Assembly: GCF_004010195.1 (NCBI RefSeq)
Contig: NC_057719.1
Location: 25,680,663-25,744,662 of the forward strand
Direction: 5' to 3'
DNA: 64,000 nt
From: Chiloscyllium plagiosum
Lineage: Eukaryota
Below are positions 1 to 40,334 of the stretch, one piece after another. The notes below the pieces were generated by a model. That model worked only from the letters and a program-made list of their open reading frames with translations, did not search any database and was not told the origin of the DNA. Each line of letters begins with the position of its first letter. The stretch's first letter is position 1. Both the position numbers and the translations under genes were made by a program.

Positions 1-170
1 AGGTCAGGCAGCATCAAAGGAACAGGAGAATCGACGTTTCGGGCATAAGCCCTTCCTATGCCCGAAACGTCGATTCTCCTGTTCCTTTGATGCTGCCTGA
101 CCTGCTGCGCTTTTCCAGCAACACATTTTTAAGTTCTGATCTCCAGCATCTGCAGTCCTCACTTTCTCCT
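1..170. mobile_element. Penelope-derived fold-back element, family 1 (left part outside window), interrupting CR1 ORF1
   Basis: Perfect 47-bp inverted arms at 1-47 and 57-103. Carries hammerhead stem II and GAAACGTC but lacks CTGATGA. Ends in the family tail ctgatctccagcatctgcagtcctcactttctcct. Confidence 0.75.
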
Positions 171-3100
171 AGTTGTTTCCCTGGTGCCAGGATCAAGATG
201 TCTCAGAGAGGATGCAGTATGTTCTCAAGGGGGAGAGGGGTCAGCAGGAGGTCATTGTACACATTGGAACCAATGACATAGGAAGGGAAAAGTTTGAGAT
301 TGTGAAGAGAGATTACAGAGAGTTAGGCAGGAATTTACAAAAGAGATTCGTGAGAGTAGTAATATCTGGATTACTCCCAGCGCTACAAGCTAGTGAGGGC
401 AGGGATAGGAGGATAGAGCAGATGAATGTATGGCTGAGGAGCTGGTGTATGGGAGAAGGGTTCACATTTTTGGATCATGGGAAGCTCTTCTGGGGTAGAA
501 GTGACCTGTACAAGAAGGACAGATTGCACCTGAATTGGAAGGGGACTAATATACCGGCAGGGAGATTTGCTTGAGCTGCTCGGGAGGATTCAAACTAGTA
601 AGGTGGAGGGTTGGGACCCAGAGAGATAGTGAGGAAAGAGATCAATCTGAGACTGGTACAGTTGAGAAAACAAGCGAGTCAAACAGTCAGGGCAGGCAGG
701 GACAAAGTAGAGAGCAAGGTAGGATTGATAAATGAAACTGCATTTATTTCAATGCAAGGGGCCGAAGAGGGAAGGCAGATGAACTCAGGGCATGGTTAGG
801 AACATGCGACTGGGATATCATAGTTATTCTTTTTTATTCCTGATGAAGGGCTTTTGCTCGAAACGTCGATTTCGCTGCTCCTTGGATGCTGCCTGAACTG
901 CTGTGCTCTTCCAGCACCACTAATCCAGTATCATAGTAATTACAGAAACATGGCTCAGGGATGGACAGGACTGGCAGCTTAATGTTCCAGGATACAAACG
1001 CTACAGGAAAGGAGGCAAGAGAGGACAGGGAGTGGTGTTTTTGATAAGGGATAGCATTACAGCTGTGCTGAGGGAGGATATTCCTGGAAATACATCCAGG
1101 GAAGTTATTTGGGTGGAACTGAGAAATAAGAAAGGGATGATCACCTTATTGGGGTTGTATTATAGACCCCCTAATAGTCAGAGAGAAATTGAGAAACAAA
1201 TTTGTAAGAAGATCTCAGCTATCTGTAAGAATAATAGAGTGGGGGATTTTAACTTTCCAAACATAGACTGGGACTGCCATAGTGTTAAAGGTTTAGATGG
1301 AGAGGAATTTTGTAAGTGCGTACAATAATAATATCTGATTCATTATGTGGATGTACCTATTAGAGAAGGTGCAAAACTTGACCTACTGTTGGGAAATAAG
1401 GCAGGGCAGGTGACTGAGGTGTCAGTGGGGGAGTACTTTGGGGCCAGCAACCATAATTCTATTAGTTTTAAAATAGTGATGGAAAAGGATAGACCAGATC
1501 TAAAAGTTGAAGTTCTAAATTGGAGAAAGGCCATTTTTGACTGTATTAGGCAAAACTTACAAAAGCTGACTGGGGACAGATTTTCACAGGTAAAGGGACG
1601 GCTGGAAAATGGGAAACCTTCAGAAATGAGGTATCAAGAGTCCAGACACCGTATGTTCCTATTAGGGTGAAAGGAAAGGCTGGTAGGTGTAGGGAATGCT
1701 GGATGACTGAAGAAATTGAGGGTTTGGTTTGGTTAAGAAAAAGAAGGAAGCATATGTCAGGTATAGACAGGATAGATCGAGTGAGTCCTTTGAAAAGTAT
1801 AAAGGCAGTAGGAGTATACTTAAGAAAGAAATCAGGAGGGCAAAACTGAGACATGAGTTAGCTTTGGCAAATAGAGTTAAGGAGAATTCAAAGGGTTTTT
1901 ATAAATACATTAGGGACAAAAGGGTAATTCGGGAGAGAATATGGCCCCTCAAAGATCAGCAAGGCAGCCTTTGTGTGGAGCTGCAGGAGATACTAAACGA
2001 GTATTTTGCATCAGTGTTTGCTGTGGAGAAGGACATGGAAGGTATATAATGTAGGGAAATAGTTGGTGACATCTTGAAAAATGTCCATATTACAGAGGAG
2101 GAAGTTTGGATGTCTTGAAATGCATAAAAGTGCAAAATTCCCCAGGACCTGACCTGATCAGGAATACCCTAGAACTCTGTGGGAAGCTAGGGAAGTAATT
2201 GCTGGGCCTCTTGCTGAGATATTTATATCATCGATAGTCACAGGTGAGGTGCTGGAAGACTGGAGATTGGCTAAGGTGTGCCAATATTTAAGAAAGGTAG
2301 TAAGGACAAATCCAGGAACTATAGAGCCTGACATCAGTGGTGGGCAAGTTGTTGGAGAGAATCCTGAGGGACAGGACATACATGTATTTGGAAAGGCAAG
2401 GACTGATTAGGGATAGTCAACATTGCTTTGTGCATGGGAAATCATGACTCACAAACTTGATTGAGTTTTTTTGAAGAAGTAACAAAGAGGATTGATGAAG
2501 GCGGAGCGGTAGATGTGATCTTGATGGTCTTCAGTAAGGCATTCGATAAGGTTCCCCATGGGAGACTGGTTAGCAAGGTTAGATCTCATGGAATACAGGG
2601 AGAACTAGCCATTTGGATACAGAACTGGCTCCAAGGTAGAAGACAGAAACTGGTGGTGGAGGGTTGTTTTTCAGTTTGGGGGCCTGTCACCAGTGGACCC
2701 CACAAGGATCGGTGCTGGTCCACTACTATTCATCATTTATATAAATGATTTGGATGTGAGTATAAGAGGTACAGTTAGTAAGTTTGCAGGTGACATCAAA
2801 ATTGGAGGTATAGTGGACTGCAAAGAAGGTTACCTCAGATTACAATGAGATCTTGATCAGATAGACCAATGGGCTGAGGAGTGGCAGTTGGATTTTAATT
2901 TAGATAAATGCGAGGTGCTGCATTTTGGGAAAGCAAACCTGAGCAGGATTTATACATTTAATGGTAAGGTCCTAGGGAGTAATGATGAACAGAGGGACCT
3001 TGGAGTGCAGCTTCATAGCTCCTTGAAAGTAGAGACACAGGTAGATAGGATAGTGAAGAAAGCATTTGGTATGCTTTCTTTTATTGGTCAGAGTATTGAG

Positions 3101-3236
3101 TACAGGAGTTGGGACATCATGTTGTGGCTGTACAGGACATTGGTTAGGCCACTGTTGGAATATTGCATGCAATTCTGGTCTCTTTCTTATCGGAAGGATT
3201 TCGTGAAACTTGAAAGCGTTCAGAAAAGATTTACAA
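171..3236 (+). mobile_element. Decayed CR1 LINE (ORF1 SGNH/esterase-like domain, APE endonuclease, reverse transcriptase)
   Basis: Colinear broken ORFs: VHIGTNDI...LHLN, YYRPP, GDFNFPNIDW, LDLLL, FSKAFDKVPH, FNLDKCEVLHFG, YRTLVRPLLEYC. Many stops and frameshifts, 3' truncated. Confidence 0.92.
825..928 (+). mobile_element. Short PLE-derived insertion with hammerhead motif, nested in CR1
   Basis: TSD TATCATAGT at 816-824 and 929-937. CTGATGA-A-GGGC-TTTT-GCTC-GAAAC-GTC at 840-867. Confidence 0.75.
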
Positions 3237-3239
3237 TCA

Positions 3240-4570
3240 CCCTTTGTTTCTTGCTACTAAGCAAATTTTATATACAAATTGGCATACTTCCCTGGATCCC
3301 ATGGGCTCTTCGGTTCTTAACCAGACCTTCATATGAGACCTTGTCAAAAATCTTATTTACTTCCACGTGGACTATATCAACAGCACTGCTGTTATCTACA
3401 TACCTATTCTGATCCACAAAAATTGTATTTTTTATAGACATGGTCTCTTCTGAAAAAGCCATGCTGACTATCCTTGATTAATCTTTGTCTTTCCAAGTGA
3501 TGATTAATTCTGTACCTAAGATTTCTTTCCAATACAGTTCCTCCTACAGATGTTAGATTTCCTCATTTATTCCTGCCACATCTTGAATAATCGTACCACA
3601 TCTATTACCTCCGGTCCTCTGGACACCTCCTGTGGCCAGATGAGATTTGAAAATTAATGTCAGAGCCCCATGTACTCTCCTCCTTTGCCTCCCAAAGCAG
3701 CTGGGATACATCTCATTTGGGGTTTATCCACTGTCGGATCTGCTAAAAACATGAATGCCTCCTCCCTCTCAGTGATAATTTGTTCAAGTTAATTATAGTC
3801 CCTTTCCGGATTTCTAGACCTACATCATCCCTTTCTATTGAGAACGCAGATGCAAAGTACTCATTCAAAATCTCAGCTATGTCTTTGAGCTCTACACACA
3901 GATTACCACTTTGGTCCCTACTCTTTTCCTGGTATTGCCTCTGATATATTTCCAAAATGCTTTTGAATGATCATTAATGTTACCCACCAGTGTTTTCTTG
4001 TGTCCCTTCTTTGCTTTTCTGGTTTCGTTTGTATGTAACACTTTGCACTTCTATACTCCTCTAGTGCACCCACTGTTTTGATACCCACTTTGGTATCTGC
4101 CTTAAGTTCTTTTTTCCTTCCGTATCCAATCCTGTTCACTCCTTGACATCCAGGGTTCTCTGGACTTGTTGATCCCACCTTTCACCTTTACTGGAATATG
4201 TTGACTTTGCAAGCTCACAATTACCATTTTGAATATCTTTCACTGCTCTGTTGTATATTTTCATGCAAATAGATGTTCCCAGTCCACTTTGGTCAGATCC
4301 TGTCTCATCTTATTAATATCAGCTTTCCCCCAATTCAGAATCTTTACTGCAAGTCCATTATCCATAATTATCTTGAACCTTACTGAATTATGGTCAATAT
4401 CACCGATATAGTCCCCAATATCTCTCACTTGCATGGCTTTTTTCCCTAAATTTAGGTCCAGTGCTACCCTTCCTGCTTCCTAGTTTTAAAAAATCTCCTG
4501 GACACATTTTAAGAATTCTGCAGCCCATGCCTCTCACACTTTGTCAATCCCACTGAACATTGAGGAAGTT
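3240..4570 (-). mobile_element. Older CR1 fragment, opposite orientation
   Basis: Minus-strand ORFs AVDIVHVEVNKIFDKVSYEGLV and AEILNEYFASAF are CR1 ORF2 motifs. Confidence 0.8.
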
Positions 4571-4629
4571 GAAATCCCTGACTGGGATGATTGTTAGTTT
4601 TTACATTTTCCAAAGAATGTTGTTTTTGA

Positions 4630-5700: not shown

Positions 5701-5721
5701 GTGAGAATGTGTGTGATGGGC

Positions 5722-5900
5722 TGTTGGAGAAACTCAGCAGGTCTGGCAGCATCTTTGGAGAGAGAAAACAGAGTTAGCATTTCGAGTCTGTTTAGAAGAA
5801 GTCGGTTTCTTTCTCCACACTTGCTGCCAGACCCCTGATGAGTTTATTCAGCACTTTCTCTTTTCATTTCAGATTTCCAGCATCTGTAGTATTTCACTTT
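5722..5900. mobile_element. PLE-derived fold-back element, family 2, degenerate
   Basis: Arm aactcagcaggtctggcagcatct is inverted against gctgccagacccctgatgagttt. Tail atttcagatttccagcatctgtagt. Confidence 0.6.
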
Positions 5901-6734
5901 TATATATTAGCCTATTGCTTGATTAGTCTGTAGGGCAGCTCTCCCAATTTTGTTAATAATAAGCTCTGTGTGTCATTGAATTTAAGGACTTTTTGAAAGA
6001 TCTTGTCAGACTATAACTCACAACAATTAACCTTCTCTGCCATTCAACAGGATCATGACTGATCTGACATTCCTCAAATCCACCTTTCTGCGTTATCTTC
6101 ATAATCCTTGATTCCCCTAATGATCGAAACTTAAACTGCCCCACAGCTCTCTATTATAAGGAATTCCAAAGACTCACAATCCTCAGAGAAGAAATTCCTC
6201 CTCAACTCAGTCTTAAATTGGTGCTCCTGAATTCTGAGACTATGCCCTCTGGTCTTAGGTTCTCCCATGAGAGGAAACCTCCTTAACATTTACCTTGTCG
6301 TGCCCTTAACAATCCTGTACGTTCCAATGAGATCACTTCTCATTCTTCTAAACTCCAGTGTTTCGGACTGGGCTACTGAATGTCATAGAGATGAAGACTA
6401 ACAAATGGTCAGTCAGAAAAAGCAAGCGTCATGTTCCGAGCAGAGGTGGGGCCAATCATTTTCAATATGGCTAATCAGCAATAATGTGATGGAGCAGAAC
6501 TCCGCACCTCAGACCGTGCATCCCACATCTCCCCTGCCTCCAAACTGTTAGACAACCAATCTAAATTTCATCATACTGGAGTAAATGAAATAAAATGAAA
6601 TCAGTATTATAATGGATGTAAAATTAGATGGCTAAGTTGAAACCTCCCTTGCAGAATTTCTATTTACATGTACAAAACAGTCCAAAGGTACTAAAACATA
6701 TTTTCCATAAATGAGAAATTTTAAAAATGATTAC

Positions 6735-7043
6735 CAGTATTTCCAACTGACATCGAATCATAAATCAGCTTGCAGGACTTGAGCAGATAGGTGACCTTCT
6801 TGTCTGGTGAATAAGCTTGGTGCATGGTACTGAGTTTCTGCTGTATTTTCTCCAAGACGCTAACTTCAGGTACACTGGTAGTTACACCCAAGTCGGTGGT
6901 AGTTGTGTTTTGCATAATCTGTTGGTTCTCTTTCAAAAGCTTCAGATTGCCATTTTTGGAATGAATTTCCTTTAGTTGCATGTTGATATGGTCTTTTAAT
7001 GGTTTGAGAACACATTTACACAATGCTGATTCCACAACAGCTT
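6735..7043 (-). CDS. RIN3: RIN3 coding exon (VPS9 Rab5-GEF region, first part), 309 nt
   Basis: attttAG|AAGCTGTT...AATACTG|GTaat. Translates (E)AVVESALCKCVLKPLK...TTTTDLGVTTSVPE...MHQAYSPDKKVTYLLKSCKLIYDSMSVGNT(G). I found no downstream VPS9 or RA exons in the window. Confidence 0.94.
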
Positions 7044-8062
7044 CTAAAATAGATAAGAAGTTAGTTAAGCAACACACATTGCAAATAAAAATTGACAGAA
7101 GGATTAGAATTAATTGGTGTAATACATAAATTATATGAATTTTATTAAACTGCAACTAATCTCTCTGGCTCCATGTAGTGAACTTACTGAATGCCTCATA
7201 ATTTGCTTTAAGTCCAATGGCTGTGAATTTAGGAAATCTGAGGCAATGTTTTTCCTGCTTTTCTGTTTTTGCATTGAGACTTCTTTCCTGTTTACTTTTC
7301 CTTTCTTATTAAATCCACCCTCTAGAAGATAACTTCTGTCTCTAGTCTAATTTTCACAAGGTACTGATTTACATTTGTGTATTTATAAGACATTCATTAC
7401 AAAACTTCTTACTCCTTACAAGACTTTAATTAAGCCTCTGCTGTCATGTTGTGTTCAATTTTGTCTCCTCACATGGTCAAGATATTGAGACTTTGGAAAG
7501 AGTGCAGAGGAACATCAATAGATTAATCCTACTTTAAAAAAGCACAGATTCAGAGATGATTTGATTGATGATTATTAGATCACAGAGGACCAGATGGTGT
7601 CTGTATAACCAGATTATTTTTAAAGCATATATTAGAGTGGACCGGAAGGTAACCCCACAAATTACATGAGGGTTGAATTAGATATGATGCTAAAAGGGTT
7701 TTCTGTTCTCTTGAATAGCATGCAAGCTCATAAAACAAAGACTGAAATTGATTCCTTCAGCTGAGAGATAGACTTGCTTTTAATTGACACCGAGATCACT
7801 TCATACAACTTACATGTACTTTGTAACATTAATTAGGTTCAGTGTGGTCTCTGGACCAGAACTGATCACCTAAGGGTCAAATGATTTGTCCTGAAATTGT
7901 TTTCTTAATTGTTTTGGTTTTTAATCTATCTTTTGCTTTTTGCCTTTATCAGGAGAGTATCTAGCTCTGAGTGGGTTAAGGACTGGATGTATTGTGAAGC
8001 GCTGTCACAATGGTCAAAGTTCCCCTGGCTTCTGGAACTGTTGCATGCTTATCAAACACAAT

Positions 8063-8342
8063 AGAATAATAGAATCCCTACATTGTGGAAAGACACCATT
8101 CAGCTCATCGAGTCCACAATGACCCTCCGAAGAGCATCACACCCAGACCCAGCCCTCCACTCTATCCTCAAAACCCCACATTTCCCATGGCTAATCCACC
8201 CAGCCTGCACATGCCCGGACACTATGGGAAATTTAGTATGGCCAATCCACCTAACCTACATGTCTTTGGACTGTAGGAGGTAAGTTGTGGGAGGGTCCCA
8301 GCCACTTTAAGGCAGCAGTGTTAACTGCTGAGCCCCTGTGAA
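8063..8342 (-). mobile_element. HE1/V-SINE, internally deleted
   Basis: V-domain atggccaatccacctaacct...tctttggactgt, head aggcagcagtgttaact, and (ATAGA)n tail. Confidence 0.75.
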
Positions 8343-8532
8343 ATAGGTTTCAGCAAGCTTATGTCTCTTTAGTGGCCTAAATGGAGGTGAAGTGTGGTCT
8401 AATGTTGATCTGAAGTGTTTGCTGATCACCTCTCATCACCACAATCTCTAGGGATTTAATGTCACTCTAAATGCCCACATTCTCTGAATGCTAGTTGGTC
8501 TTTGGACATCTGCCTAGAAAAATGATCGAATA

Positions 8533-8632
8533 CAAAAACAGGAATTACTGGAGAAACTCGGCAGGTCTGGCAGCATCTGTGGAGGGAAAAACAGAGTCAA
8601 TGTTTCGGGTCCAGTGACCCTTCTTCAGAACT
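8533..8632 (-). mobile_element. PLE terminal fragment, family 2, with hammerhead motif
   Basis: Minus strand AGTT-CTGAAGA-A-GGGTC-ACTG-GACCC-GAAAC-ATT-GACT at 8632-8595. Confidence 0.75.
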
Positions 8633-9329
8633 AAGAGTTGTGTTGACATTATTAACACACAAACCTCCTGCCTGCTTCTGACGGTGATTGTTTCAGGAAA
8701 GACATGGCAAGCACAAACAACCCAGAACCCAATGTTGCAAATCTTAATATCTAAGACCTGGTACTCAGAGGGCATTAGGCAGGTTTGTATTTACTACAAA
8801 ACGGATTCCTGTTTCACTATCAACCAGATTTACTGCAAAGTCTTGACTGTACAATGTTAAAGGATGGATTTCCTACTCAAAAGTCAGAGGAGAGTCAAAA
8901 ATAAAACATTGTCAATTCAGGTGCAAAGCTTCCTATTCGATAGCATTGTTCAATTCTTTGGAGGCAAGGCCTTTACCTCAGTTATCATTGAGCAAGAATT
9001 TCTTCCAGTAAGTAATGATAAATTCACAGACTGTACAGAAATATGATTTTCAGATCATAACATTTGTGCCATACTTTTTCACCATCTACAGTATTAATAA
9101 TCTCACTCTCATGGACATTCCCTGCTGCAGCCTCCACCCCCACAGCTAGGAAAATCTCTTTTAAGAAACTTTGTCAACATGGTTTCAACAACTGTTCATG
9201 GTGCAGAATCCAATGTTATGACCATTACTGTGTAAAGAATCACTTTTCTAACCCCTCCTTAAATTCTTACAGTGGTCATCTTAACCTTGTGCCTCACAAA
9301 TTAGAAATACAGCAAAAATCAATCTTTAC

Positions 9330-10775
9330 CCAGTTTTTCTTCAGATTGGTAAGATGAATCCACCATTTGGGTCAACTCTGTACTTTGTAGTAAATAGCTC
9401 TTGAGCTGTGTCATCATCTGCCGAATCTCCTGCAACATTTCTGTGCTAGAGGTATGATTCTGCATCACTTCCATTGTGTATGCTTTGTAATCCTGAACCA
9501 GGTGACCAAAATATGACTCCTTCTCTTGAGCCAGTTCTGTTATTTTCTTCTGAATTTTTCTGTCTGTTGAACGGAAAGCATTCAAAACATTGCTTAATGT
9601 CACAATTGACAGTCTGTTTCTTGCTTTGTCCAACATCATAGAGTGCCGTTGCTTCCTAGTTCGTGAATGAGTGTGCACTGGATCTTGCTCTTCCTCTGTG
9701 CTGCTGGTGGAGTAAGAATCTGCTTCGGAAATGGGATTGGATATGTTCCCTTCAGGTGAGTACAACGACCCATCAGCTAGTTTCAAATCCGTGGAGTTAC
9801 ATGATTGCACACAATCGCTCTGCATTGAGGAGTCAGAGACATCTTCTGACTGATCCTTTATTGTAACTAACTTAACTATCTTTGACGCTTTGTTTTCCTG
9901 ACCTCTGGTAGTGTGTTCTTGGTGGGTGTCTTTGCTGGCAATTTGGTTGGATAATTTTTTTCTTCTTGGAGGAGCAATAGGTGTAGACTGACCTAACTGT
10001 TTCCATTGCACAGTATTGGACATGCCTGAAGTGCTGTTATTCAAACCATCAATACTTTGCGATTTGTCACTCATCAATTCCTGCTGTTCATTTGCAGCCG
10101 ATTTAATGGAGTCTTCAACCGGCAGCTTATCATTCCCTGTATTATCAATGCTTTGTTCAACTTCCTTAGCCTCCTTCCTTCTCTCCTCACTCTGGCTGCT
10201 GTCAATGTCTGCAGGTTGCTTTTCTGATGGCCGTCGTCTTGGTGGAACTGGTGGGAACTTATCGCGAATTGGAGTTCCTATATAGTCCACATTGTTTTCA
10301 ATTTCTTTTCTGCCCTGTGGCAAGGCCTGAACCTGCTTGATTAAATTGTCATGCTCCCTTCCAATTTTAATTTCATCATCATTTTTCTTGAGCACTTTGT
10401 CGCACAGTGACTGGTTTCTATTTCCACAGCTATCAGACAGCACAGCAGTCAGTTCTGATGGCTTTGGTCGGGGAGGGAGTGGTGGGGGTCTCTTCACTTT
10501 CAGATCCATGTTATTTGTAGAGCTTGGGCGTTGGTCTGCTGATGGTTCTGTTGAAGGGCCAGTGCTGCAGCATTCTTTTATAAACACAGGATTGACAAAC
10601 CACAATTTGTCATTTCCTGCTGACAACTCAACTTCGCATGAACATTGCCTTTTATCAGCAGATATGTTTGGAGTCATTTGATGGCCTTGAATCTGGTTGT
10701 TAATGGTATTCAAGTCTTTCAAAACTGAACGAGTTTCTTCCTGACTTGGTTTATTTAAATATGAACTCCAGAAAT
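9330..10775 (-). CDS. RIN3: RIN3 large coding exon (proline-rich region and start of RIN-homology/VPS9 helical region), 1446 nt
   Basis: Lies within the 494-aa ORF 9319..10803. Acceptor gtcctctgtgatAG at 10777-10776, donor G|GTaaag at 9329. Contains DFWSS, LWFVNPVFI, PPPLPPRP, PPVPPRRR, PIAPPRRKK, DSYSTSSTEEE, YFGHLVQDYK and SSTEMLQEIRQMMTQLKSYL. Confidence 0.95.
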
Positions 10776-11164
10776 CTATCACAGAGGACACAATAAGCAG
10801 CAAAACATTTCAGTCAAAGAAGTACAACATAAATTGCAGAATAATAGCCAAAAGTAATCATGTGCTATACATTTTAAGTATTTTACATGTGATTATATGT
10901 GAGTCTAAATAGACACCTTCTATATGAAACTTTGCATTATATGCTTCATCATTTACATCTACGCAAACTGCAATATATCTCTTTGCTGAATTTGCAGCAT
11001 ACCATTTTGAAAGTGTTAAATCTAATTTGGTGGGCCTACTAATTGAATAAGTCCTGGTTGGGACCATTAGTTTGTGATGTTTCCAATTTCCCATCTTGTT
11101 AATGGCAAGGAAATGGGCTACACCCTGCACAGGGTGTACTAACCTTTGCGTGCCATTCCTCTTT

Positions 11165-12274: not shown

Positions 12275-13659
12275 CTGTACACAAAAAAAAGAATACAAGT
12301 AAGATCTTAAAAAAGTATACTCAAGATGAATGCCAGTCTGTTGAAAGATATTGTCATAATTGTCATAACTTTAAAATCTATATTATATTAGACATGCACC
12401 ATTTTAATTTAAAAACTGCTCTCATTCTCACTGGTGAAGAGAATGTTAAGTGATGATTATATTTTCTCGATTATGAAGGGGAACATATCATTTAGATTAA
12501 GGCGAAATGAAGTAGGTAGGATGGTGTGGGACCAGAACTTTCACCACCCATCCCCTTCCTTCCTTTGCCTGAATTTGGTTTTGGGTGTGAAGGACCAGAC
12601 TTTGCCTTTTTGTTGAGATCTTTAAGTGGTAACTGAATAAAATTTAAGGATTGTTTGCCTGTGAGATGCAATAATTTCCACTCCAGGCAGAATTGGAAAA
12701 CATTGGCCTAATTGACTGGTAAAACAGCACAGGCAGGATGTCAGTTGAGGTGCACTTGGGTCTCTCAAATTACAGCTGAAGGACTGTTTATAGAGGATTG
12801 GCCACGAGGATTCCCATTACCCTTCTATCCCACCCCCTTGGCCCCTTTTTCCATGCCACCAGCACCCTGCACGATTCTCCCCTCACACCCTCAAAACAAC
12901 ATTTACCCTCTATTTTGGCAAGAGTGATCCCAATTCTGAGAGTTCCGATGGTGTTGTCCCAGCAGCAGCCATGACTCTGACAAGTTTCGGAGTTCTCAGC
13001 CTCCCACAGGCCAGCAGTGCTTTGTGGCCAGTATAACCTCATAGTATTGGCTAAAAGCCCATTGAAGCCAATCAGTGGACTCATTGCAGTAAGATCCAGC
13101 AAGCTTTCAAATCCTGCTATCCCGAAGGAAACACCAACAAAACTTACGAATGATCCATACCGGTCCAAACTTGTCTTATTTACTTCAAATACAGAGCTCC
13201 AGTATGGCCGGTAAGTTTAGTTACAGCTATTACGTTTATCGAAAGAAATTGTTTTTTTCACTTCTTGGGAGACTCTGAGTTTGGCTTGTGTAAAGTGCTG
13301 AGGGGAAAGCATTGTGTGGTCTCTTTAAGAGCTGTCAGGAGAATATGAAGAAGTAAAAAAAGGCTATTTTGAGTGCTCACGGATAGGTACCAGAAGCATA
13401 TAGACAATGGTTCAGAAATGTAAGAAAGGAACCAGATCAGACCTATACTAAGTTTGAAAGAATTAAACAGAGCAATTTCGATAGCTGGATGACAGCATTC
13501 AAGATAGAAAATACATATGAGGCTCTTAGAGATATTTTCTGCTGGAGGAGTTGAAAAACTCACTTCCAGAAGTGATAAAAACTCGTGGCGAGGAAAAGAG
13601 AGTTTCAACAGTGAGAAGACTTACCAGGGGAAAGCAGTGGAGCACAGGACTCTGGCACA

Positions 13660-25466: not shown

Positions 25467-25741
25467 GGAAGAAAGTGGAGACGGAGATTTAATAGAGGTG
25501 GGATCACAATGGAAGCACAACAGGAATATCTGTAGAGGGCAGGAGAAGCAAAAAGAAGAAAAGAGATAATGGTGCAAGGCAAAAAAAGATAGTAATGAGA
25601 CAAGTAAAGAAACAAAGACTGGATCCAGAAGAGAGGTAAACAGGACAGGAGAAACTGACTAGCGAAAGCGCAGTCAAATAGAACAAAGAACTGCAGATAC
25701 TGGAGATCTGAATATAAACAGAAATAGAAGGCGAAACTCAG

Positions 25742-26123
25742 CAGCAGCTCAGATTTGGTTTGGACACCCAACAGCCTTTAGGACTCAACATTGAGCTCAA
25801 TAACTGTTTCTGTCCTTCCATGATTTTTCACCAACGCCCAAACCCTGGTCCTTAATGACGTGGATTGCTTTCAGGACAGCCTGATGGTTCTCTCCTTCTC
25901 TCAGCTCAATCGGCTTCACTTCTGTCCTGTCTTATTATCAACAATGTCCTTTCATATCTCTCTGTCTGGGTTCTGTCTCCACCTATCCACTCACCTCATC
26001 AGGCCATGACACCTCCCGCCCAGCTTCGACATAAATACTACTTTTCCTAGCTGATATCAGTTCTGATGAAGAGTCACTAGACTAAAAGTATTAACTCTAC
26101 TTCTTCCCCACAGATACTGCCTG
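25742..26123 (+). mobile_element. Penelope-like element 3' fragment (ORF C-terminus, UTR, hammerhead motif)
   Basis: 25742-25804 translates QQLRFGLDTQQPLGLNIELNN, like the PLE GIY-YIG C-terminal LxTxxPxGLN motif. Followed by AGTT-CTGATGA-A-GAGTC-ACTA-GACT... from 26059. Confidence 0.7.
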
Positions 26124-26487
26124 GAATGTTGTCAATGCCCATAGCTGTTGCACTACCCAGTGCCTCCAACCGTTTCTTGATACCACGTGGAGTAAACCGA
26201 ATTGGTTTCAGACTGGTATCTGTGATGCTGAGGAGTACAGGAGGAGGCTGAGATAGATCATCCACTTGGCACTTCTAGCTGAAGATTGCTGCGAAAGCTT
26301 CAGCCTTATCTTTTGCACTGATGTGCTAGGCTCTTCCATTATTGAGACTTGGGATATTTGTGGAGCCTCCTCCTCCAGTGAGATTTTTAATTGCCTACCA
26401 TGATTCATGACTGGGCGTGGCAGTACTGCAGAGTTTGGATCTGATCCGATCACTCAGCTCTGTCTATCATGTGCGGCTGATGGTGGT

Positions 26488-26766: not shown

Positions 26767-26802
<36 letters not shown>

Positions 26803-27453: not shown

Positions 27454-28490
27454 GTCATAGAGTCATAGAGATATACAGCATGGAAACAGACCCTTCGGTC
27501 CAACCTGTCCATGCCGACCAGATACCCCAACCCAATCTAGTCCCACCTGCCAGCAGCTGGCCCATATCCCTCCAAACCCTTCTTATTCATATACCCAACC
27601 AAATGCCTCTTAAATGTTGCAATTGTACCAGGCTCCACCACTTCATCTGGCAGCTCATTACATACACGTACCACCCTGTATGAAAAAGTTGCCCTGTAGG
27701 TCTCTTTTATATCTTTCCCATCTCACCCTAAACCTATGCCCTCTAATTCTGGACTCCCCCACCCCAGGGAAAAGACTTTACCTAATTATCCTATCCATGC
27801 CCCTCATAATTTTGTAAACCTCTATAAGGTCACCCCTCAGCCTCTGACGCTCCAGGGAAAACAGCCCCAGCCTGTTCAGCCTCTCCCTATAGCTCAAATT
27901 CTCCATCCTTGTAAATCTTTTCTGAGCCCTTTCAAGTTTCACAACATCTTTCCGACTGGAAGGAGACCAGAAATGCACGCAATATTCCAACAGTGGCCTA
28001 ACCAATGTCCTGTACTGCCGCAACATGACCTCCAATGTCCTGTACTGCCGCAACATGACCTCCCAACTCCTGTACTCAATACACTGACCAATAAACGAAA
28101 GCATACCAAATGCCTTCTTTACTATCCTATCTACTTGCGACTCTACTCTCAAGGAGCTATGTACCTGCACTCCAAGGTCTCTTTGTTCAGCAACACTCCC
28201 TAGGATCTTATCATTAAGAGTATAAGTCCTGCTAAGATTTGCTTTCCCAAAATGCAGCACCTCGCATTTATCCGAATTAAACTCCATCTGCCACTTCTCA
28301 GCCCATTGGCCCATCTGGTCAAGATCCTGTTGTAATCTGAGGTAACCCTCTTCACTGTCCACTACATCTCCAATTTTGGTGTCATCTACAAACTTAATAA
28401 CTGTATCTTTTATGCTCGCATCCAAATCATTTATGTAAATGACAAAAAGTAGAGGACCCAGCACCGATCCTTGTGGCACTCCACTGGTCA
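27454..28490 (-). mobile_element. 5'-truncated CR1 (RT C-terminal half plus tail)
   Basis: 233-aa ORF PQGSVLGPLLFVIYINDLD...KFVDDTK...RGDLIEVYKIM. Tail reads agtcatagagtcatagag on the plus strand. Confidence 0.93.
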
Positions 28491-29319
28491 GCTACTTTAT
28501 CTACTTTACTAACTTCTTGTTACACCTTCAGGTTGACCCCTCATTATGATTCATGTTTCATTAAAAAAAATTTCCTGAAAGCGAGTTTGCCATTATAGCA
28601 TCCATTGGTGGCATATAGAGAATGGAACATACAGTTTCTTTTTTTGCACACCGTTTGGCACAATCATTGGCATAAAACAAGTATTTTACCTTCATTGAAA
28701 CCCAACACAGTACTCAGAATAATAGTTCAGCCTTTATCCTTAGGCACTAACAGTAAGAGAGGAATAATATCTGACCTTTTCACTTCACCCTTGAATGACT
28801 TCACTGTGCAATTTTATTATGGCTATGTGGGCACCATCTAGTCAAAGAGCAGCAGATCATAATGCCAATCCAGTGAAGAAGAATCAGCCCTTCTGAATGA
28901 AATGAGAGACAAAAAACACAGATTTGGCTGTGCAAGATCCTTCCAGACTGTTACGCTTGCCTGAAGGGAGCTGTCACTCATCAACAAGGTACTAGCCCAG
29001 TGCAGAAAATAATCAATTAAATTCAAAATGGCTGGCAAGGTCATGTTAAGACCTAGAGAACTGATACGTTGTTATTGCTGTAGGTTGGTAGCAGATTGAA
29101 TGAATGTCGCCATTTGCACACGGGGGAGAAGGAGATCAAGGTGAGGTATCAACATTAAACTGAGTTCTGCAAAACCATTAATGCAACACTCAGTGGAGAT
29201 TCCTCTGAGTGTACATCACTCTGATGGTCTGCCTCCAGTATCTTCGATTCACCTGGGAAATGATATCTGCATCAATCAGATCAAAGTGCAGTACCTCCTG
29301 AATTATGAAGTTCAGAAAG

Positions 29320-29517
29320 TTAAAAATCACACAACACCAGGTTATAGTCAAACAGGTTTAATTGGAAGCACACTAGCTTTCGGAGCGACGCTCCTTCATC
29401 AGGTGAGCGTCGCTCCGAAAGCTAGTGTGCTTCCAATGAAACCTGTTGGACTATAACCTGGTGTTGTGTGATTTTTAACTTTGTACACCCCAGTCCAACA
29501 CCGGCATCTCCGAATCA
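29320..29517. mobile_element. PLE-derived fold-back element, family 3
   Basis: 78-bp inverted arms at 29316-29393 and 29405-29482 with 2 mismatches. TSD GAAGTTCAGAAAG at 29307-29319 and 29518-29530. Confidence 0.8.
29371..29405 (-). ncRNA. Minimal type I hammerhead ribozyme motif
   Basis: CAC-CUGAUGA-A-GGAGC-GUC-GCUCC-GAAA-G-C-U-A-GUG. Stem I is CAC/GUG, stem II is 5 bp, stem III is a loopless palindromic AGCU, and the predicted cleavage triplet is CUA. Activity is not shown. Confidence 0.75.
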
Positions 29518-29849
29518 GAAGTTCAGAAAGGAACTGTAAGGTATTGTTATTTCTCTGAAGGCTGAATGCAGATTCTTGATTTGAGCAATAATATGCTTTG
29601 ATCGCACTCATTGTTCATCTCTTCTACAGTTACTGCAGCTTCTATATTTTGGGTCACTAAGTGTGCAGACGGAAGGCTTTGAATAGCTTTGTCTCTATCA
29701 AGAGGTCAGGGAGGGGCCATTGCCAAGGGATGAAGCCTCATCGGCCACTTTTTGATTGCTGCTACATGCTTGCTCTTCACATTGCCTGAGAGAACACTTC
29801 ATGTTACACATCAATTCGACCTTGGAGTTTAGAGAAAGCAGCAATTCCA

Positions 29850-31215
29850 TAAGATAGAGCTATAGAGTCCTTTCTCACAAAGACAGGCCTCTTGGTCCAA
29901 ACTGGTCCATGCTAACCAAAATGTCCATCTATGCTAACAGCATTTCCTTGCATTTAGCCCATATCCTACTAAACTTTTCTATCCATGTATTTGGCCAAAT
30001 GCCTTTTAAATGTTGTTAATGTAGCCGCCTCAACCAATTCCACTGGCAGCTTATTCCATATGCATACCAGCCTCTGTGTAAAAAGGTTGCCCCTCAGGTT
30101 CCCTTTTATTCTTTCCCCTCTCACCTTAAAATGATGCCCTCCAGTCCTTGATTCCCCATCCTTGGGAAAAAGACTTGAGTGCATTCACCCTATCCATGCC
30201 TCTCATGATCTTACACACTTCTATAAGATACCCCTTCAGTCACCTATGCTCTAAAGAAAAAAGTCCTAGCTTGTCCAGCCTCTCCCAATAACTCAGTCCC
30301 TTGAGTCCTGGCAACATCCTTGTAAATATCTTCTGCACTCTTTCCAGTTTAATAACAGCCTTCCTATAGCAAGATGACCAAAAATGAACACAATACTTCA
30401 AATGCAACCCCATCAATGTTCTGTACAACTGCAACATTACTTCCCAACTTCTTTATTCAATAAAGGTCAGTGTGCCAAAGGACTTCTTCACTGCCCTGTC
30501 TACCTGTGACTCACTTTCAGAGAACTGTGCACCTGAACTCCCAGGTCCCTCTGTTCCACTAAACTCCTTAAGGCCCTACCATTCACCATGAAACTCCTAC
30601 CTTGATTTGACTTTCCACAAGGTAACACCTCACACTTACCTATATTAAACTCCATTTGCCATTTCTTAGCCCATTTCCCCAGCTGATCAAGATCCTGCTG
30701 TAATTCCTGACAACCTTCCTCCCTGTCCACAAGACCACCGATTTTAGTGTCATCAGTAAATTTACTAATCATGCCTTGTGCATTTTCATCTAAATCATTG
30801 ATAGAGATAGCAAACAGCAATGTACCCAGCATTAACCCCTGAGGCACTCCAGTCCAACAAGCATCCTTCCACTATCACCCTCTGCTTCCTCCCATCAAAA
30901 CCAATTATGTATGCAATTTTCAGCTTCCCCTGGATTCCATACAATCTAACCTTCCACAGCAGCCTAACATGTGGAACCTTATCAAATGCCCTCCTGAAAT
31001 CCATATAGACTATGTCTACTGCCCTGCCTTCATCTACCCTCCTGGTCACTTCATCAAAGAATCCTAACAAATCTGTGAGGCATGATACGCAACGCACAAA
31101 GCCATGCTGACGACTCCTAATCAAACCCTGTCTTTCCAAATGGAAATACTTCAGAATCTCCTCAAGTAACTTACCCACCACAGATATTAGGCTTACTGGT
31201 CTTTAGTTCCAAGGT
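29850..31215 (-). mobile_element. 5'-truncated CR1 (RT to 3' end)
   Basis: ORFs QHGFVRCVSCLTDLL...MDFRRAFDKVPH, PQG..LG.LLF..INDLD..KFTDDTK, and HLKYCVHFWS. Confidence 0.92.
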
Positions 31216-31332
31216 TGCCAAGATCCTGTGGCTCTAGTGTTCTACTATCTAGGTCCAATTTCTAAACTTGTAAACTGGGTTAGCCTTGTGCAAAACAGCA
31301 TGACAAATTTATGCTTGAATTCTGTCCGGTTA

Positions 31333-34300
31333 ATAGAACATAGAATACAGAACAATACAGCGCAGAAAAGGCCCTTCGTCCCTTGATGTTGCACTGACCT
31401 GTGAACTAATCTAAGCCCATCCCCCTACACTATCCCATCATCATCCATGTGCTTATCCAGGGTTGTTTAAATGCCCCTAATGTGGCTGAGTTAACTACAT
31501 TGGCAGCAGGGCATTCCACGCCCTTACCAGTCTCTGAATAAAGAACCTGTTTTTGACATCTATCTTAAATCTATCACCCCTCAACTTGTAGCTATGACCC
31601 CTCATACAAGCTGACATCATCATCCAAGGAAAAAGACTCTCACTGTCCACCCTATCTAATCCTCTGATCATCTTGTATGTCTCTATCAAATCCCCTCTTA
31701 GCTGTCTTCTCTCCAATGAGAACAGACCCAAGTTCCTCAGCCTTTCCTCATAAGACTTTCTCTCCAGACCAGGCAACATCCTGGTAAATCTCCTCGGCAC
31801 CCTTTTCCAATCCTTCCTGTAATGGTGCGACCAGAACTGCACACAATACTCCAAGTGAGGCCACACTGGCATTTTGTACAGATGTAGCATGACATCGTGG
31901 CTCCGGAACTCAATCCCTCTACCAATAAAACTTAACACACCGTATGCCTTCTTAACAGCACTATGAACCTGGGTGGCAACTTTCAGGGATCTATGTACAT
32001 GAACACGAAGATCCCTCTGCACATCCGTATTACCAAGTATTTTCCCATTGACCAAGTATTCTGTCTTCCTGTTATTCCTCCCAAGAATAAATGAATCACC
32101 TCACATTTATCTGCATTGAACTCCATTTGCCACCTTTCAGCTCAATTCTGCAGTTTATCAAAGTCTCCCTGCAACCCATAACATTCGACCACACTGTCCA
32201 CTACTCCACTGACTTTGGTATCATCTGCAAACTTACTAACCCATCCACCTATGCCTGCGTCCAAGTCATTTATAGAAATGACAAACAGCTATGGTCCCAA
32301 AACAGATTCTTGAGGCATACCACCAGTAACCGGACTCCAGGCTGAATACTTTCCTTCAACCACAACTCGTTGCCTTCTTACAGAAAGCCAGTTTCTAATC
32401 CAAACTGCTAAGTCACCTTCAATCCCATGACTCCGCATTTTCTCCAAAAGCCTACCATGTGGAATCTTGTCAAAGGCTTTACTGGAGTCCATGTACACTA
32501 TGAGGAGAAAGTGAGGACTGCAGATGCTAGAGATCAGAGCTGAAAATGTGTTGCTGGTAAAGTGCAGCAGGTCAGGCAGCATCCAAGGAGCAGGGGAATC
32601 GACGTTTCGGGCAAGGGCTCATGCCCGAAACGTCGATTCTCCTGCTCCTTGGATGCTGCCTGACCTGCTGCGCTTTTCCAGCAATACATTTTCAGCTCCA
32701 TGTACACTACGTCAACTGCCCTACCCTCATCCACATGTTTGGTTTGTGAGATAGGACCTGCTCTTGATGAATCTATGTTGACTATTTTCAATCAAATTGT
32801 TGCTTGCTAGATGATTATAAATCCTATCTCTTATAATCCTTTCCAAAACGTTTCCAACAATAGGCTCACTGGTCGATAATTACCTGGGTCATCTCTGCTG
32901 TCCTTTTTGAACAAGGGCACAATATTTGCAATCCTCCAGTCCTCAGAGACTAAACCTGTACACAATGATGACTCAAAGGTCAAGGCCAAAGGCTCAGCCA
33001 TCTCCTCCTTCCCAGAGAATTCTTGGAAAAATCCCAACTGGCTCAGGGGACTTATCTACTTTCACTCCTTCTCCTCCTTACTAACCTCAATCCTTTCAAG
33101 TCTAATAGCCCGTATCTCAGTCTTCTCCTCAACAATGTTTTCCTTTTCCTGAGTGAAAACAGCTGAGAAATAGTCGTTCAGCACATCTCCGATCTCCACA
33201 GGGTCCACACACAACTTCCCACTTTGGTCTTTGACTGACCCTATACCTACCCTAGTCATCCTTTTATTCCTCACATACCTATAGAAAGCTTTAGGGTTCT
33301 CCTTTATTCTACCTGCTAAAGACTGCTCATGTCCCCTCCTTGCTTTTCTTAATTTTTTCTTTAAATCCTTCCTCGCTACTCTTTAACTCTCCATCACCTC
33401 ATTTGAACCACCTCATCTCAAAGTAATAAGCCTCCCACTTCCGCTTAACAAGAGATACAATTTGTTTTGTAAACCACGGTTCCCTTACCTTATCACTTGC
33501 TCCCTGCCTGCGAGGAACATACCTATCAAAGACACACAATATCTGTTCCTTAAACCAGCTCCACATTTCGATTGACCCCATCCCCTGCATTTTGCTGCCC
33601 CATTCTATGCCTCTAAAATCTTACCTCATCGCATATTAATTGCCCTTCCCCCATTTATAACTCTTGCCTTGTGGCATGTATGTATTCCTTTCCATCATTA
33701 AACTAAACAGAACTGAATTATGGTCACTCTCTCCAAAGTGCTCACCTACCACTAAATTCATTACCAAGCACCAGATCCAGTGTGGCCTCTCCTCTTGTCT
33801 GTCCTTTGACATACTGTGTCAGGAAACCCTCCTGCACACATTGGACAAAAACTGATCCATCCAACGTACTTGAGTTATAACATTTCCAGTCAATGTTGGG
33901 GAAGTTAAAGTCCCCCATAATGACCACGCTGTTCCTTTCACTCCTACCCAGAATCGATTTGCCAATCCTCTCCTCCACATCCCTGGAACTTTGCGGAGGC
34001 GTATAAAAACCTCCCAGCAATTTGACCTCTCCTCTCTTGTTTCTAACCTCAGCCCATACCACCTCAGTAGACGAGTCCTCTTCAAATGTTCTTTCAGCCA
34101 CTGTTATACCGTCCTTGACTAACAAAGCCACATCTCCCCCTCTTTTACCACCTTCCCTGATCTTAATGAAATATCTCAACCCTGGAACATGCAACATCCA
34201 TTCCTGACCTTCCTCCACTCATGTCTCAGAAATGGCCACAACATCAAAGTCCCAGGTACCTATCCATGCTGTGAGCTCACCTACGTTATTCCGGATATTC

Positions 34301-36410: not shown

Positions 36411-36414
36411 GCAC

Positions 36415-36770
36415 AACGAAAAATGCTGGAAACCACAGCAGGTCAGGCATCATCTGTGGAGAGGGTACAAGCTAATGTTTTGAGTCTAGATGACTCTTCA
36501 TCGGACCTGACATGATGTGTGGAGGGGGCTGCATTGATTTTGTGTGTGCGTGTGTGCAGAATGTTCATGGTTCAGAGTAAGTGATAGGAATGTGAGAATG
36601 GCAGAACACAACTGCCAGACTGGAAGGTACAGATGGTCTTTCTGTGGGGAGAGGGAAGAGAGAACATGGTAACAGACATTGCATCAAGTTAAGCTAAAAT
36701 AAATGGAAGGAATGGGAGTGAGTTTACAATCTGAATGTGTTGAACTCAATCTGAAGTCCATAAGGTTATA
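36415..36770 (-). mobile_element. Penelope-like element 3' fragment with degenerate hammerhead
   Basis: Minus 36765-36724 translates PYGLQIEFNTFRL*. Downstream is CCGATGA-A-GAGTC-ATCTA-GACTC-AAAAC-ATT at about 36505-36475, then the family arm. Confidence 0.65.
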
Positions 36771-37450
36771 TAGTATATTCTGGCTACTGCATTATTAATT
36801 TAAGATAATGCCTGACTCTCAATAATTCCACCCTTTCCCACTACTGTTTTTCTATGATAATAACCATCTGAAAATCTTTCCTGGCTCCTGTGATGCCATG
36901 ACTCTGCATGTCTGAGAAGAGTGAATGGACTGGCAGTGAAAAAAAAAATCCTGATATATCCAGGAAAACAGACTGAAAAGCTCTTCCAAATTATAAGCTT
37001 AAACTCTCAAATCCCTTCAACTTCACAAAGCCCTGCCTTGATCAGATGATTGTAGCAGCAGCTTGGCTTGACGTAACTTACCCTGGAAAATTTAACAGCA
37101 AGAATTTAACTAAAAACTGAACAAAGTCTATTAAATCTCCCAAGCAAAGAAACAAACATCTACTAATCTAAAAAAATTGAAGTAAAACAATTGCCAAATT
37201 CAGATTAAGACTCCTAAATTAAAATGCCGATTACCTACTGGAGCTGTCTTCTGAGTATATGTTTAGCTTGCAACCAAAGGTTGGGAGGTACTTTCAAAAG
37301 ACTGAAGCTGTTCATTTGCATGCACAAAAAAGTAATAATTTTCAAATGTATTTACAAACCCTCTTCAATTAAATGTGAGAGAAGTGAATTTAGAGAATTC
37401 AACTTTGACAGACATGTGTTAACACAGGTAAAGTTGTCATCATCTGAGAG

Positions 37451-37658
37451 GAGTCAAGAGTGAATACTGACTGAAGTCAGAGTGAAGTCAGGAATCGAGA
37501 GTGATTCCTGACTGAATCAGGAATGCTGTTCCTGATGAAGGGCTTTTGCCCAAAACATCGATTCTCCTGCTCCTTGGATGCTGCCTGACCTGCTGTGCTT
37601 TTCCAGCACCCCATTCTCGACTCTAATCTCCACTATCTGCAGTCCTCACTTTCGCTCC
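37451..37658 (+). mobile_element. PLE-derived insertion, family 1, with scrambled 5' filler
   Basis: TSD TCATCTGAGAG at 37440-37450 and 37659-37669. CTGATGA-A-GGGC-TTTT-GCCC-AAAAC-ATC from 37532. Confidence 0.75.
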
Positions 37659-40334
37659 TCATCTGAGAGAGCCATAGGGCTATTCTCTCATTGATTTGTA
37701 AGTTTAAATTGAGGGTTACTATGCCTCAGGCAAGGGCTAAAGTTGAGAAGGTTGGTCCTTCAGGGTGACCTTAGCCAGTCCAGGATGCTGGTATCACTCT
37801 TCTTGAACCAGCCTGCCAGCCAGCCAACTGAACTAAACTGGCATCATTGGTCTTAACAGCAGATTTACAATGTAATTCTGGCTTGTGTTCGGTGGCTGCA
37901 AGTTTGTATTGCAGCAAGGTTGAAGTGTGCTTGTATGCTGTCTGACTGAAACTTTGCAAAGCATTAGGAATCAAAGTCATACCTGTGTGGTTAATAAGAT
38001 TTATGTAAATCATAATGCCATAATTGATCATATAACTCTGATGCCTGTAAGAGAGAAGGCCCAATTTGAGAGTGAGCATGTAAAGAAATAGGTCTTAGAC
38101 AAGAGAGATATATTTGATAAACTATTATGTACAGAAGGAAATATTAGGAGTGTTACAGTACAAAAAGAGTTAAGAACCTTTGTGATCAGGAGCAAGCAGC
38201 CTCAGAATCAGGTACGTGCTTGCACCAACAGCCCAGAGATGCTTTGGACCAGTATTTCAATGTGCAGTTAGCAGTGCTGGCTTAAAGCACAAGATACAAC
38301 AGCTGTAGTCTTCATTGACTGTACTCCTATTCTTGGTGGTGGCTGGGTGGTGACAGGAAGGATATTGAATCTCTCCAACGTCACTTAAATGCAGTGGACA
38401 CCTCTTAAAAGGAATGTGCCCACCCCTTTGATTATAGAAGAACAGCTACATTTGAATGGAGCAGAAAATTTGCCAGAACTGCAGATTTTGCCCATGGTTT
38501 CAGGAATGCTACCTTTGGGTTGCTATCCAGATGTTGCTAAGGATGGGGACAGGAATCCCTTCACATTTTAACTCTGCTGGCAGTGGGAAAAGATGGAACA
38601 GGGAGTGAATGTCAGGAGCTTAGGCTGAAATGCCAGTTCATTGTCAGCAGAATTGTCAAGGTAATAGTGCTCTCTTACCCTATGCATAGCTCCACTACTT
38701 CTAGCCTCACTACTCAATAGATTCCCCTAACTGCTTGCATTCACTCACCCACTAGATGCCTTATTCTCTTTTTTCCCTTTGTTCTATTTGACCCTACTCA
38801 GTCAATGAGCTGAGCAGAGCATGGATTGTTCTGTGCAACATGGACCAAGTGGTCCAATCCATGAATGCAGCAGTGGCCCCCTGAATACTGGAGCCTTGGC
38901 TGACAGTTCTGAAAGCTTCTAGGCCTATCGTCATTGGAGTTGTCTCTGACAATTACTGTGGCAGCTCACATCTGCTACTGAACCATAGACAACTACCATC
39001 TTGGCTCTGGGTGCCAGTATTGACAGGGGTCTGCAAGGAACAGAGGGCACTAATTTATTTCAGACATTTATTCCTTTCAATATGATTACCGTGTGCTTCT
39101 AATGCCATGTGCAAAGTTTGAATCAACATGACAGGCAGGAGAGTGTTCCAGCTAGAAATGAACATGCAATTTCAGACAGCCTTATTACAAACCTAAGAAG
39201 TCAATTAACACCCAAAATGGGCAGTACGTAACCTAACTTTTGGAAAATACATTTATGTTGAGGTAGAGTAGGTTTAAAAGTTCCCAATGTCTCCAATACT
39301 TCAAAATACCTGAATAATTTGTAACTCAGCTTTGACCTCACTCTGGACTTAAATGTTGCAATGCTAACTGAAGTGAAACTGACCCTACTCGAGTAAGTCT
39401 CACATTAGTCTGCTGCAGAATCAGGCCAAACGTTAAGTAGTGTTATAATTGATGGCCATGTCTCTCTATTTTAGTGTCCTCCTAGTCTCAACATTATGTG
39501 AATCAGTTGTTCCCAAAAGAGAGCCCATTCTATTCTATATCTATTATTTTGCTGAACTCACGAAAGCTCAGTCCATGTGAAACTATTTGTCAGCAAATGT
39601 GTTGGCATGTGGTTTACAGATGTCACAGTTTGGCGACTAATTTACAGGATATATGCTGACACAGCCTGGAAAAAGTCAGTTCTCATGCAAGACCATTTCC
39701 CAGGGATGTAGTGAAGAATAAATAGAAAGGAGAAATAAAACTGTTGGTGGCATCAGCGGAACTCACACAGAAAAGAAACTTCTAGTGCGCGTAATCTACA
39801 TTTTGTAAAACACAACTTTCTGAACAATTTGCTTCTGTAAGACCTGCCCCCACATCACTGTGTCGTACTGTGGTTTTCACACTGTTAGAACATCCGTATT
39901 TGTCGTCATGGTAACTCAGCAGTGGTCACTGAGAGCCGAACTAATTATAAGTTTTATTTTTTAAGGAAGTTAACGGAGTTATTTGTTTGCACTTTTGTTC
40001 TGTTTTTTTCAGTGATTTGTCATTTTATATAATAGCTTTTATAATTCTTGACTTGGCAGCAACAGAATCAAGACCAATTAGCTGATAATTCCTATTGCAA
40101 AATGTGAATTACGCCCGCATTGCGATTTTGTTAATAGACTGGAAATACCTCCGAACACATGGAGCTCACTTGGCTGACTGTACTAACCCATTCTTGTGAC
40201 TTGATTCATTATACTACTCTTATCTAGTTGATAGATCATCACAACACTGAAGTATTAACAGTGCTTTTCTTTGGTTGAGATATCCACTCAACTCCTCCCT
40301 CTCTGAACACTTTATTAGATGGAATAATAGCATT

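Follow-up and report, generated by a model that had tools for sequence, protein, structure and literature searches.

Short hammerhead-bearing inserts in Chiloscyllium plagiosum are very probably Penelope-like element stubs built at insertion

A stretch of 64,000 nt from Chiloscyllium plagiosum (GCF_004010195.1, NC_057719.1:25,680,663-25,744,662, forward strand), here called the window, holds 15 short inserts related to the hammerhead ribozyme, seven of them palindromic. These inserts are very probably stubs of Penelope-like elements (PLEs) that are built at insertion. Taken as a whole, the data are explained best, and on balance probably rightly, by PLE-derived end modules, with each insertion making its palindrome anew from two short cDNAs joined head to head. 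The basic layout, a minimal hammerhead, a tail and a head-to-head inverted copy, has already been described for PLEs (PMC3846280, PMC8557442), and the mirror arm is best read as made at insertion.

Fifteen inserts with a partly eroded hammerhead core

An earlier note on this DNA had listed 12 inserts in three families, and all 12 were present where it placed them and in the groups it gave. Profile searches of the window added three family-2-like copies (25687-25788, 26057-~26140 and 36413-36510), and the 15 loci together amount to 2246 bases, which is 3.5% of the window. Families 1 and 2 are mutually related, with cross-matches to E about 1e-8, and the profile searches gave no other match to family 3 within the window. 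The loci are listed below, palindromes without strand; arm limits are counted from hammerhead position C3 = 0, which puts the family 1 cut site at +27/+28, and TSD stands for target-site duplication and LINE for long interspersed nuclear element.

1-170: family 1 palindrome, clipped by the window edge; left arm to +5 from C3, right arm from +13, with tail; CTGA box lost
816-937, plus strand: family 1 monomer without tail (825-928); minimal hammerhead core at 840, complete; 9 bp TSD; within a LINE endonuclease frame
5722-5900: old family 2 palindrome; right arm tailed; no TSD; CTGA box lost
8533-8632, minus strand: family 2 tail-less monomer; hammerhead core at 8628; no TSD; flanked by two RIN-family exons
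17455-17670: old family 2 palindrome; tail-less left arm to -3, tailed right arm from about +9; possible decayed TSD (10/12)
21625-21847: family 1 palindrome (21637-21835; called 21633 in the text); 12 bp TSD with 1 mismatch; right arm tailed, to -4; left arm tail-less, to +28 to +31; exception in tail polarity
22602-22796: young family 1 palindrome (22616-22782); TSD of 14 bp; left arm tail-less, to +5; right arm tailed, from +41 to +43; CTGA box lost
25196-25308, minus strand: family 1 tailed monomer; start near +12; no TSD
25355-25466, minus strand: decayed family 2 monomer; start near -3; no TSD
25687-25788, minus strand: very decayed family-2-like copy, tailed; added copy, excluded from arm counts
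26057-26140, plus strand: family 2 monomer; added copy; TCAGTT start before the CTGATGA box; 3' end approximate
29307-29530: family 3 palindrome (29320-29517); 13 bp TSD; tail-less left arm with complete core (29402, minus strand), tailed right arm from +9; 39 nt tail
32488-32709: family 1 palindrome (32501-32696); 13 bp TSD; within a LINE reverse transcriptase frame; left arm tailed, to +14; right arm tail-less, from +7; CTGA box lost
36413-36510, minus strand: family 2 monomer; added copy; stem II GAGTC/GACTC
37440-37669, plus strand: family 1 tailed copy (37529-37658) after a 78 nt single-copy patchwork (37451-37528); 11 bp TSD

A scan of the 64 kb for the core motif gave four matches, three of them within elements (840 on the plus strand, 8628 and 29402 on the minus strand), where 50 shuffles led us to expect 0.14-0.56 by chance. 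All three families fit the published consensus of PLE minimal hammerheads, down to the additional base that precedes stem II and a palindrome of two bases where helix III would be. The claim that all copies converge on CTGAWGA-stem-GAAA did not hold: a complete core is kept in only three inserts, and neither arm has the CTGA box in four of the seven palindromes (1, 5722, 22616 and 32501), with a complete box in one (29320). Stem II does covary among the copies first listed for three pairs (GGGC/GCCC, GGGTC/GACCC and GGAGC/GCTCC), but the fourth pair cited, GAGTC/GACTC, is complete solely in an added copy, at 36504. Because an element needing cleavage would keep its core, and most copies are without a complete one, self-cleavage is probably not needed for spread; published minimal hammerheads cleave weakly or need a protein. 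Rfam at gathering thresholds returned 0 matches, and folding of eight arms gave no significant z-score (-1.05 to +0.89). Pattern scans elsewhere gave 0 matches in viral contigs and 0 in prokaryotic genomes; a metagenome scan gave 17, all of 20-26 nt and all chance matches.

Most arms begin at the front edge of the hammerhead

Arm limits cluster at the front edge of the hammerhead, mostly upstream of its cut site. The two arms of the palindromes end at +5/+13 (1), +28-31/-4 (21633), +5/+41-43 (22616), +14/+7 (32501), about +16/+29-42 (5722), -3/+9 (17455) and -3/+9 (29320), and six of seven single-armed copies start at -3 to -6. Altogether 17-18 of 21 arms have their limit within -6 to +15 of C3; copy 25687 was dropped from this count as too decayed, and the left arm of 5722, inside the interval in the profile alignment, stands at +16 or +17 in a second reading. 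Against a uniform spread over -6 to +60, 18 of 21 arms in this interval gives p about 1e-6, with the caveat that arms belonging to a single locus are not independent of each other and that the interval was fixed after inspection. The earlier suggestion that insert length is tied to the ribozyme holds for the front edge of the motif and not for the cut site. Of the seven palindromes, four have both arms ending in or beside the core; in the remaining three the shorter arm begins at or beyond the cut site (+28 to +43 from C3).

Two details of this boundary are recorded as observations. In two young family 1 palindromes (49-56 and 22693-22700) the left arms stop at the same base (+5) and are followed by the same extra C, and the right arms differ. 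At 21700-21704 and 37503-37511 a G stands directly before the ATTC strand of stem I, at a position that is mostly C in public contigs. This G may derive from a cap that was copied, but the copy at 836 lacks it.

Public contigs place the same edges in three organisms. The region 37430-37690 was compared with DNA runs of three organisms (X2, X9 and X13) and with one RNA run; 102,610-112,980 contigs matched per DNA run, and contigs are not copy numbers. Loose 5' ends pile up at 37529 (2191, 2228 and 2276 contigs in the three organisms), with only about 10 shared letters upstream of the pile (agreement 0.34). The pile is not an exact end, because this position merges all copies reaching -3 or further. 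Loose 3' ends form two piles, at 37608/37610 (430+1442 contigs in X2) and at 37653 (748), alike in X9 and X13, and these correspond to the tail-less and the tailed end.

Target-site duplications vary in length

Five loci are bounded by exact TSDs, as the earlier note had reported: 816-824/929-937 (9 bp), 22602-22615/22783-22796 (14), 32488-32500/32697-32709 (13), 37440-37450/37659-37669 (11) and 29307-29319/29518-29530 (13). Among random site pairs, exact repeats of at least 11 bp arose in 1 of 1000 trials and of at least 9 bp in 20 of 1000. A sixth TSD at 21625-21636/21836-21847 has one mismatch (11/12), and a possible decayed seventh at 17440-17451/17676-17687 (10/12) was equalled at 1.3% of 300 random sites; none was found at the seven other loci where one was looked for. 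Thus six of the 14 loci with both flanks present, plus one doubtful, carry a TSD, and its length is variable (9, 11, 13, 13 and 14 bp exact, and 12 with one mismatch). Once the insert and one TSD copy are excised, 49 codons of LINE frame read through without a stop at 825 and at 32501, so the insert boundaries at these two sites are correct; the same excision at 21637 leaves a LINE frame with one stop.

One arm carries the tail, and every centre differs

All seven palindromes are joined at their hammerhead ends, head to head, and all seven centres differ. As had been proposed, the palindromes are asymmetric: each of the six complete ones combines one tailed with one tail-less arm, with an outer overhang on one arm only of 36, 38, 39, 28, 44 and 47 nt, the last two including ragged ends. 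In well-kept copies the tail is 34-39 nt. Of the five TSD-bounded palindromes, four (22616, 32501, 29320 and 17455) have the tail on the arm that is more truncated; with 5722 included the count is five of six. A symmetric product of self-priming at stem II was sought and found at none of the seven centres.

The first 12 nt of the patchwork at 37451-37528, adjoining the TSD, match the tail-less antisense start at 11/12 positions; the middle of that arm is absent, and the gap is filled by small fragments of the hammerhead front edge and of the local flank. The patchwork is present at single-copy depth, at the same locus, in all three organisms. To us it looks like repeated template switching during end joining.

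The public contigs allowed the earlier note's check on recurrent against locus-unique junctions to be run. Among the joints listed, nine opposite-strand joints run from 37529 and spread over 37561-37591; the largest listed accounts for 21/71, 11/58 and 16/75 contigs in the three organisms, and no junction listed is dominant. Junctions within the core are under-detected, because the reference copy at 37529 has private changes there. Joints cluster at 37561-37565, just beyond the cut site, as cleaved templates might produce; we discarded this reading, since private changes upstream of 37558 bias detection in favour of such joints. The largest single joint listed is head-to-tail, from 37653 to 37529 (43, 36 and 44 contigs). 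In each of the three organisms, head-to-tail joints connect either end, tailed or tail-less, with the front edge of the hammerhead; in short tandem arrays elsewhere, two minimal hammerheads might be able to pair.

A possible structure was seen in the tail. In family 1 (54-171 and 25196-25290) tail and body can pair in a 7 bp helix, which 8 and 17 of 1000 shuffled tails reach, and in family 3 (29424-29517) an unrelated sequence forms a 9 bp helix, reached by 9 of 1000. The helix is not significant in two of five copies tested; it may be a stem-loop at which reverse transcription starts.

In the RNA run, a single-cell polyA library, 3527 of 12.96 million reads match, on both strands and within longer host transcripts, and 98% of them continue into unrelated flanks. 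No start or end peak appeared in this run, which is weak evidence and uninformative on small or circular RNA. Of the RNA datasets queried with 22300-23100, none was listed as containing it.

Anatomy points to a Penelope-like parent

The inserts combine a minimal type I hammerhead in a terminal repeat, a tail at one end, a head-to-head inverted 5'-truncated copy and a TSD of variable length, all of them PLE traits. A further trait, head-to-tail partial tandems, appears in the public contigs as the joint from 37653 to 37529; none occurs within the window. Membership rests on anatomy, from which a PLE parent appears likely. The earlier note's preference for a PLE over a miniature inverted-repeat transposable element (MITE) is upheld by the long, variable TSDs, the one-sided tail and the 5' boundary near the hammerhead. 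For the inserts to be MITEs of a DNA transposon, with inverted repeats that resemble a hammerhead by chance, is scarcely credible: they are short, hairpin-shaped, non-coding and very abundant, but six TSDs come in five lengths rather than one, the overhang is one-sided in every complete palindrome around seven different centres, seven loci and the patched copy are single-armed, and two MITE-like elements in the same window have symmetric CAG...CTG ends next to TA.

Those two elements lie at 23101-23641 (116 nt arms, 96%) and 43351-43697, with their ends adjoining TA; TA is the target of Tc1/mariner elements. The window also holds exons of a RIN-family gene on the minus strand (6724-10809), with a RIN1 domain exon at 9322-10809, a VPS9 domain exon at 6724-7155 and a 496-codon open frame, and LINE fragments at 173-3412, 13615-14058, 27781-28491 and 30503-34218 with matches to a GDSL-like ORF1, endonuclease and reverse transcriptase. 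At least two stubs sit within LINE fragments.

Discussion

How the two arms came together is the central question. The earlier note had the inserts folded at the ribozyme core. As simple fold-back of a cDNA this is not supported: a first strand that folds back copies only what it holds, and hence a tail that one arm lacks cannot appear on the partner arm if that partner begins further 3'. With the tail on the more truncated arm in four of five palindromes, simple fold-back is insufficient, and priming from both target nicks can produce the pattern. The patchwork at 37451, with a tail-less start next to the TSD and no middle, likewise fits priming from the target side. We therefore lean towards two-nick priming over fold-back.

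In the mechanism we propose, the inserts would be end modules of 85-130 nt (minimal hammerhead, body and optional 34-39 nt tail) copied from PLE RNA. The PLE protein would cut both target strands 9-14 nt apart; one nick would prime at an inner, tail-less start site and the other at an outer site that includes the tail. Both cDNAs would run about 80-120 nt, to the 5' end of the RNA or to a stall at the hammerhead fold, and their 3' ends would be joined with 0-5 nt of microhomology or filler; a single surviving cDNA would give a monomer. An RNA that starts just before the hammerhead, or an enzyme that stalls there, would yield 85-130 nt stubs without a separate short element. The palindrome would not be replicated as a unit, and self-cleavage would be dispensable. 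The earlier note had left a PLE-mobilised RNA and abortive insertion side by side; seven different centres, no dominant joint among those listed and a mostly lost catalytic box favour an insertion by-product over a replicating palindromic RNA.

Several results weigh against this account. The palindrome at 21633 has the opposite tail polarity, and four of five is a small sample. In six of eight arm comparisons the partner arm is the nearest relative or tied, through shared subfamily variants, as fold-back also predicts, and centre offsets of 7-12 nt in four of seven palindromes resemble hairpin loops. The public joints listed are 15 of 128, with overloaded placement, and a junction cannot be linked to a tail. 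RNA reads share more sequence upstream of 37529 (agreement 0.41), so the 5' wall is not absolute. At six sites TSD AT content is 55-78% against a window background of 58%, and an AT-rich target preference is not shown. No PLE reverse transcriptase or GIY-YIG frame was present in 32 of the 33 long open reading frames (ORFs; at least 110 aa) scanned, and the open frame of an arm, used as protein query in a weak search, gave seven candidates, none of which scored, and matched no longer protein.

The partner variants and the centre offsets are what self-priming with later trimming would predict. Here a hairpin arises when a cDNA folds back close to the hammerhead, or when an antisense RNA does so, as has been suggested for rotifer PLEs, and the endonuclease that resolves the intermediate removes the tail of one side. 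Head-to-head PLE junctions have been interpreted in print as self-priming on an antisense template, and PMC8557442 suggests that the tail results from resolution by the endonuclease. Trimming of the first arm would also leave the tail on the more truncated arm, and five palindromes cannot separate this from two-nick priming. We nevertheless regard it as unlikely, although it is the strongest of the competing accounts. A first strand primed at a target nick should not be able to lose its outer end and yet keep the TSD; the patch at 37451 retains the outer 12 nt without the middle; the symmetric stem II hairpin product is absent from all centres; and the tail-less end is a start site of reverse transcription in vitro (PMC11167929).

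A dedicated non-autonomous RNA of about 130 nt, resembling a short interspersed nuclear element or a retrozyme, could instead start just before the hammerhead and be mobilised by a PLE in trans, with monomers and palindromes as its insertion products. The common start of the monomers at -3 to -6 suits this reading, as does an arm boundary that in families 1 and 2 resembles an initiator motif. So do the head-to-tail joint from 37653 to 37529, the best single one listed, the more than 100,000 matching contigs per DNA run, and PLE-end-derived retrozymes reported in one cartilaginous fish (bioRxiv 10.64898/2026.07.22.740005). However, the window contains no tandem array of the unit, some copies continue upstream with shared sequence, the RNA run showed no start or end peak (weak, as a polyA library), and head-to-tail joints are also normal for PLEs. 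We give this explanation only a small chance.

Two-nick priming can be made more specific, in a form that is possible and, in our judgement, rather doubtful. A PLE dimer would prime two cDNAs on one staggered cut, always one at the tail site and one at the inner site, on an RNA whose initiator lies shortly ahead of the hammerhead; copying from the inner site would reach the RNA start, copying from the tail site would stall earlier, and the genome would hold some 100,000 such strong-stop-like products. In a fly element an intron ends at the hammerhead and the RNA starts 46 nt ahead of that intron, an arrangement that differs from the RNA start proposed here. A splice acceptor as the 5' wall was rejected: it fits family 2 (CAG) and is not at the same position in family 1.

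In L1 twin priming, both target nicks prime cDNA, which produces an inversion inside the TSD, and the two segments barely overlap. The arms of the stubs, in contrast, overlap by 45-78 nt, which would need two RNAs or strand displacement. We found no paper on twin priming in the PLE literature.

Endonuclease-bearing PLEs insert as units with an inverted pseudo-long terminal repeat and a tail (PMC3846280, PMC8557442, PMC2377424) and share with the stubs a head-to-head inverted 5'-truncated copy, a 30-40 nt tail at one end, a variable TSD and head-to-tail partial tandems. The stubs differ in being two short arms alone with no ORF between them, in TSDs of up to 14 bp against 8-10 bp in rotifer examples, and in 5' ends that pile at the hammerhead front edge. 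The solo minimal hammerheads of metazoan PLEs (PMC4209133) have the same CUGANGA-A-stem II-GAAA-2 nt palindrome-UH order and short stem I, and are dispersed by the thousand in fish, coelacanth and frog, with opposite-strand pairs 100-700 bp apart. The alignment there, in its accessible part, includes no cartilaginous fish, and TSDs, tails and junction positions are not described in that part.

A Poseidon PLE of Anolis has been studied in vitro (PMC11167929). Two internal start sites bound its tail, one of them 111-118 nt from stem II, and the stubs have two 3' ends, about 80 and 115 nt from stem II. The Anolis protein nicks and extends both target strands, 5'-shortened templates give shorter products, and a dead hammerhead still works. 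Inverted products are unexplained in the accessible text of that study. Non-LTR retrozymes (PMC7229834; bioRxiv 10.64898/2026.07.22.740005) are, like the stubs, short, non-coding, hammerhead-bearing and PLE-related, and occur in a cartilaginous fish. They form tandem arrays with a complete hammerhead per unit and circular RNAs, whereas the stubs are dispersed monomers and inverted pairs, mostly without a complete core; no retrozyme-type array was among the six tandem repeats in the window, and head-to-tail joints are a minority in public contigs. A literature search in which most subscription papers were not covered returned no description of shark stubs, of the 5' wall or of tail polarity, and an earlier description, including one in Repbase or Dfam, is quite possible.

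With the basic layout already known, the gain is a mechanistic test and not a new system. Published work calls the way in which PLEs make inverted insertions unresolved, and the tail-polarity rule, which distinguishes two-nick priming from plain fold-back, is countable in any assembly of the group. For annotation, stub loci would pass as MITEs or as unknown repeats. If the more specific form of two-nick priming is true, about 100,000 strong-stop-like stubs would suffice to read the unsolved integration step of PLEs from sequence alone.

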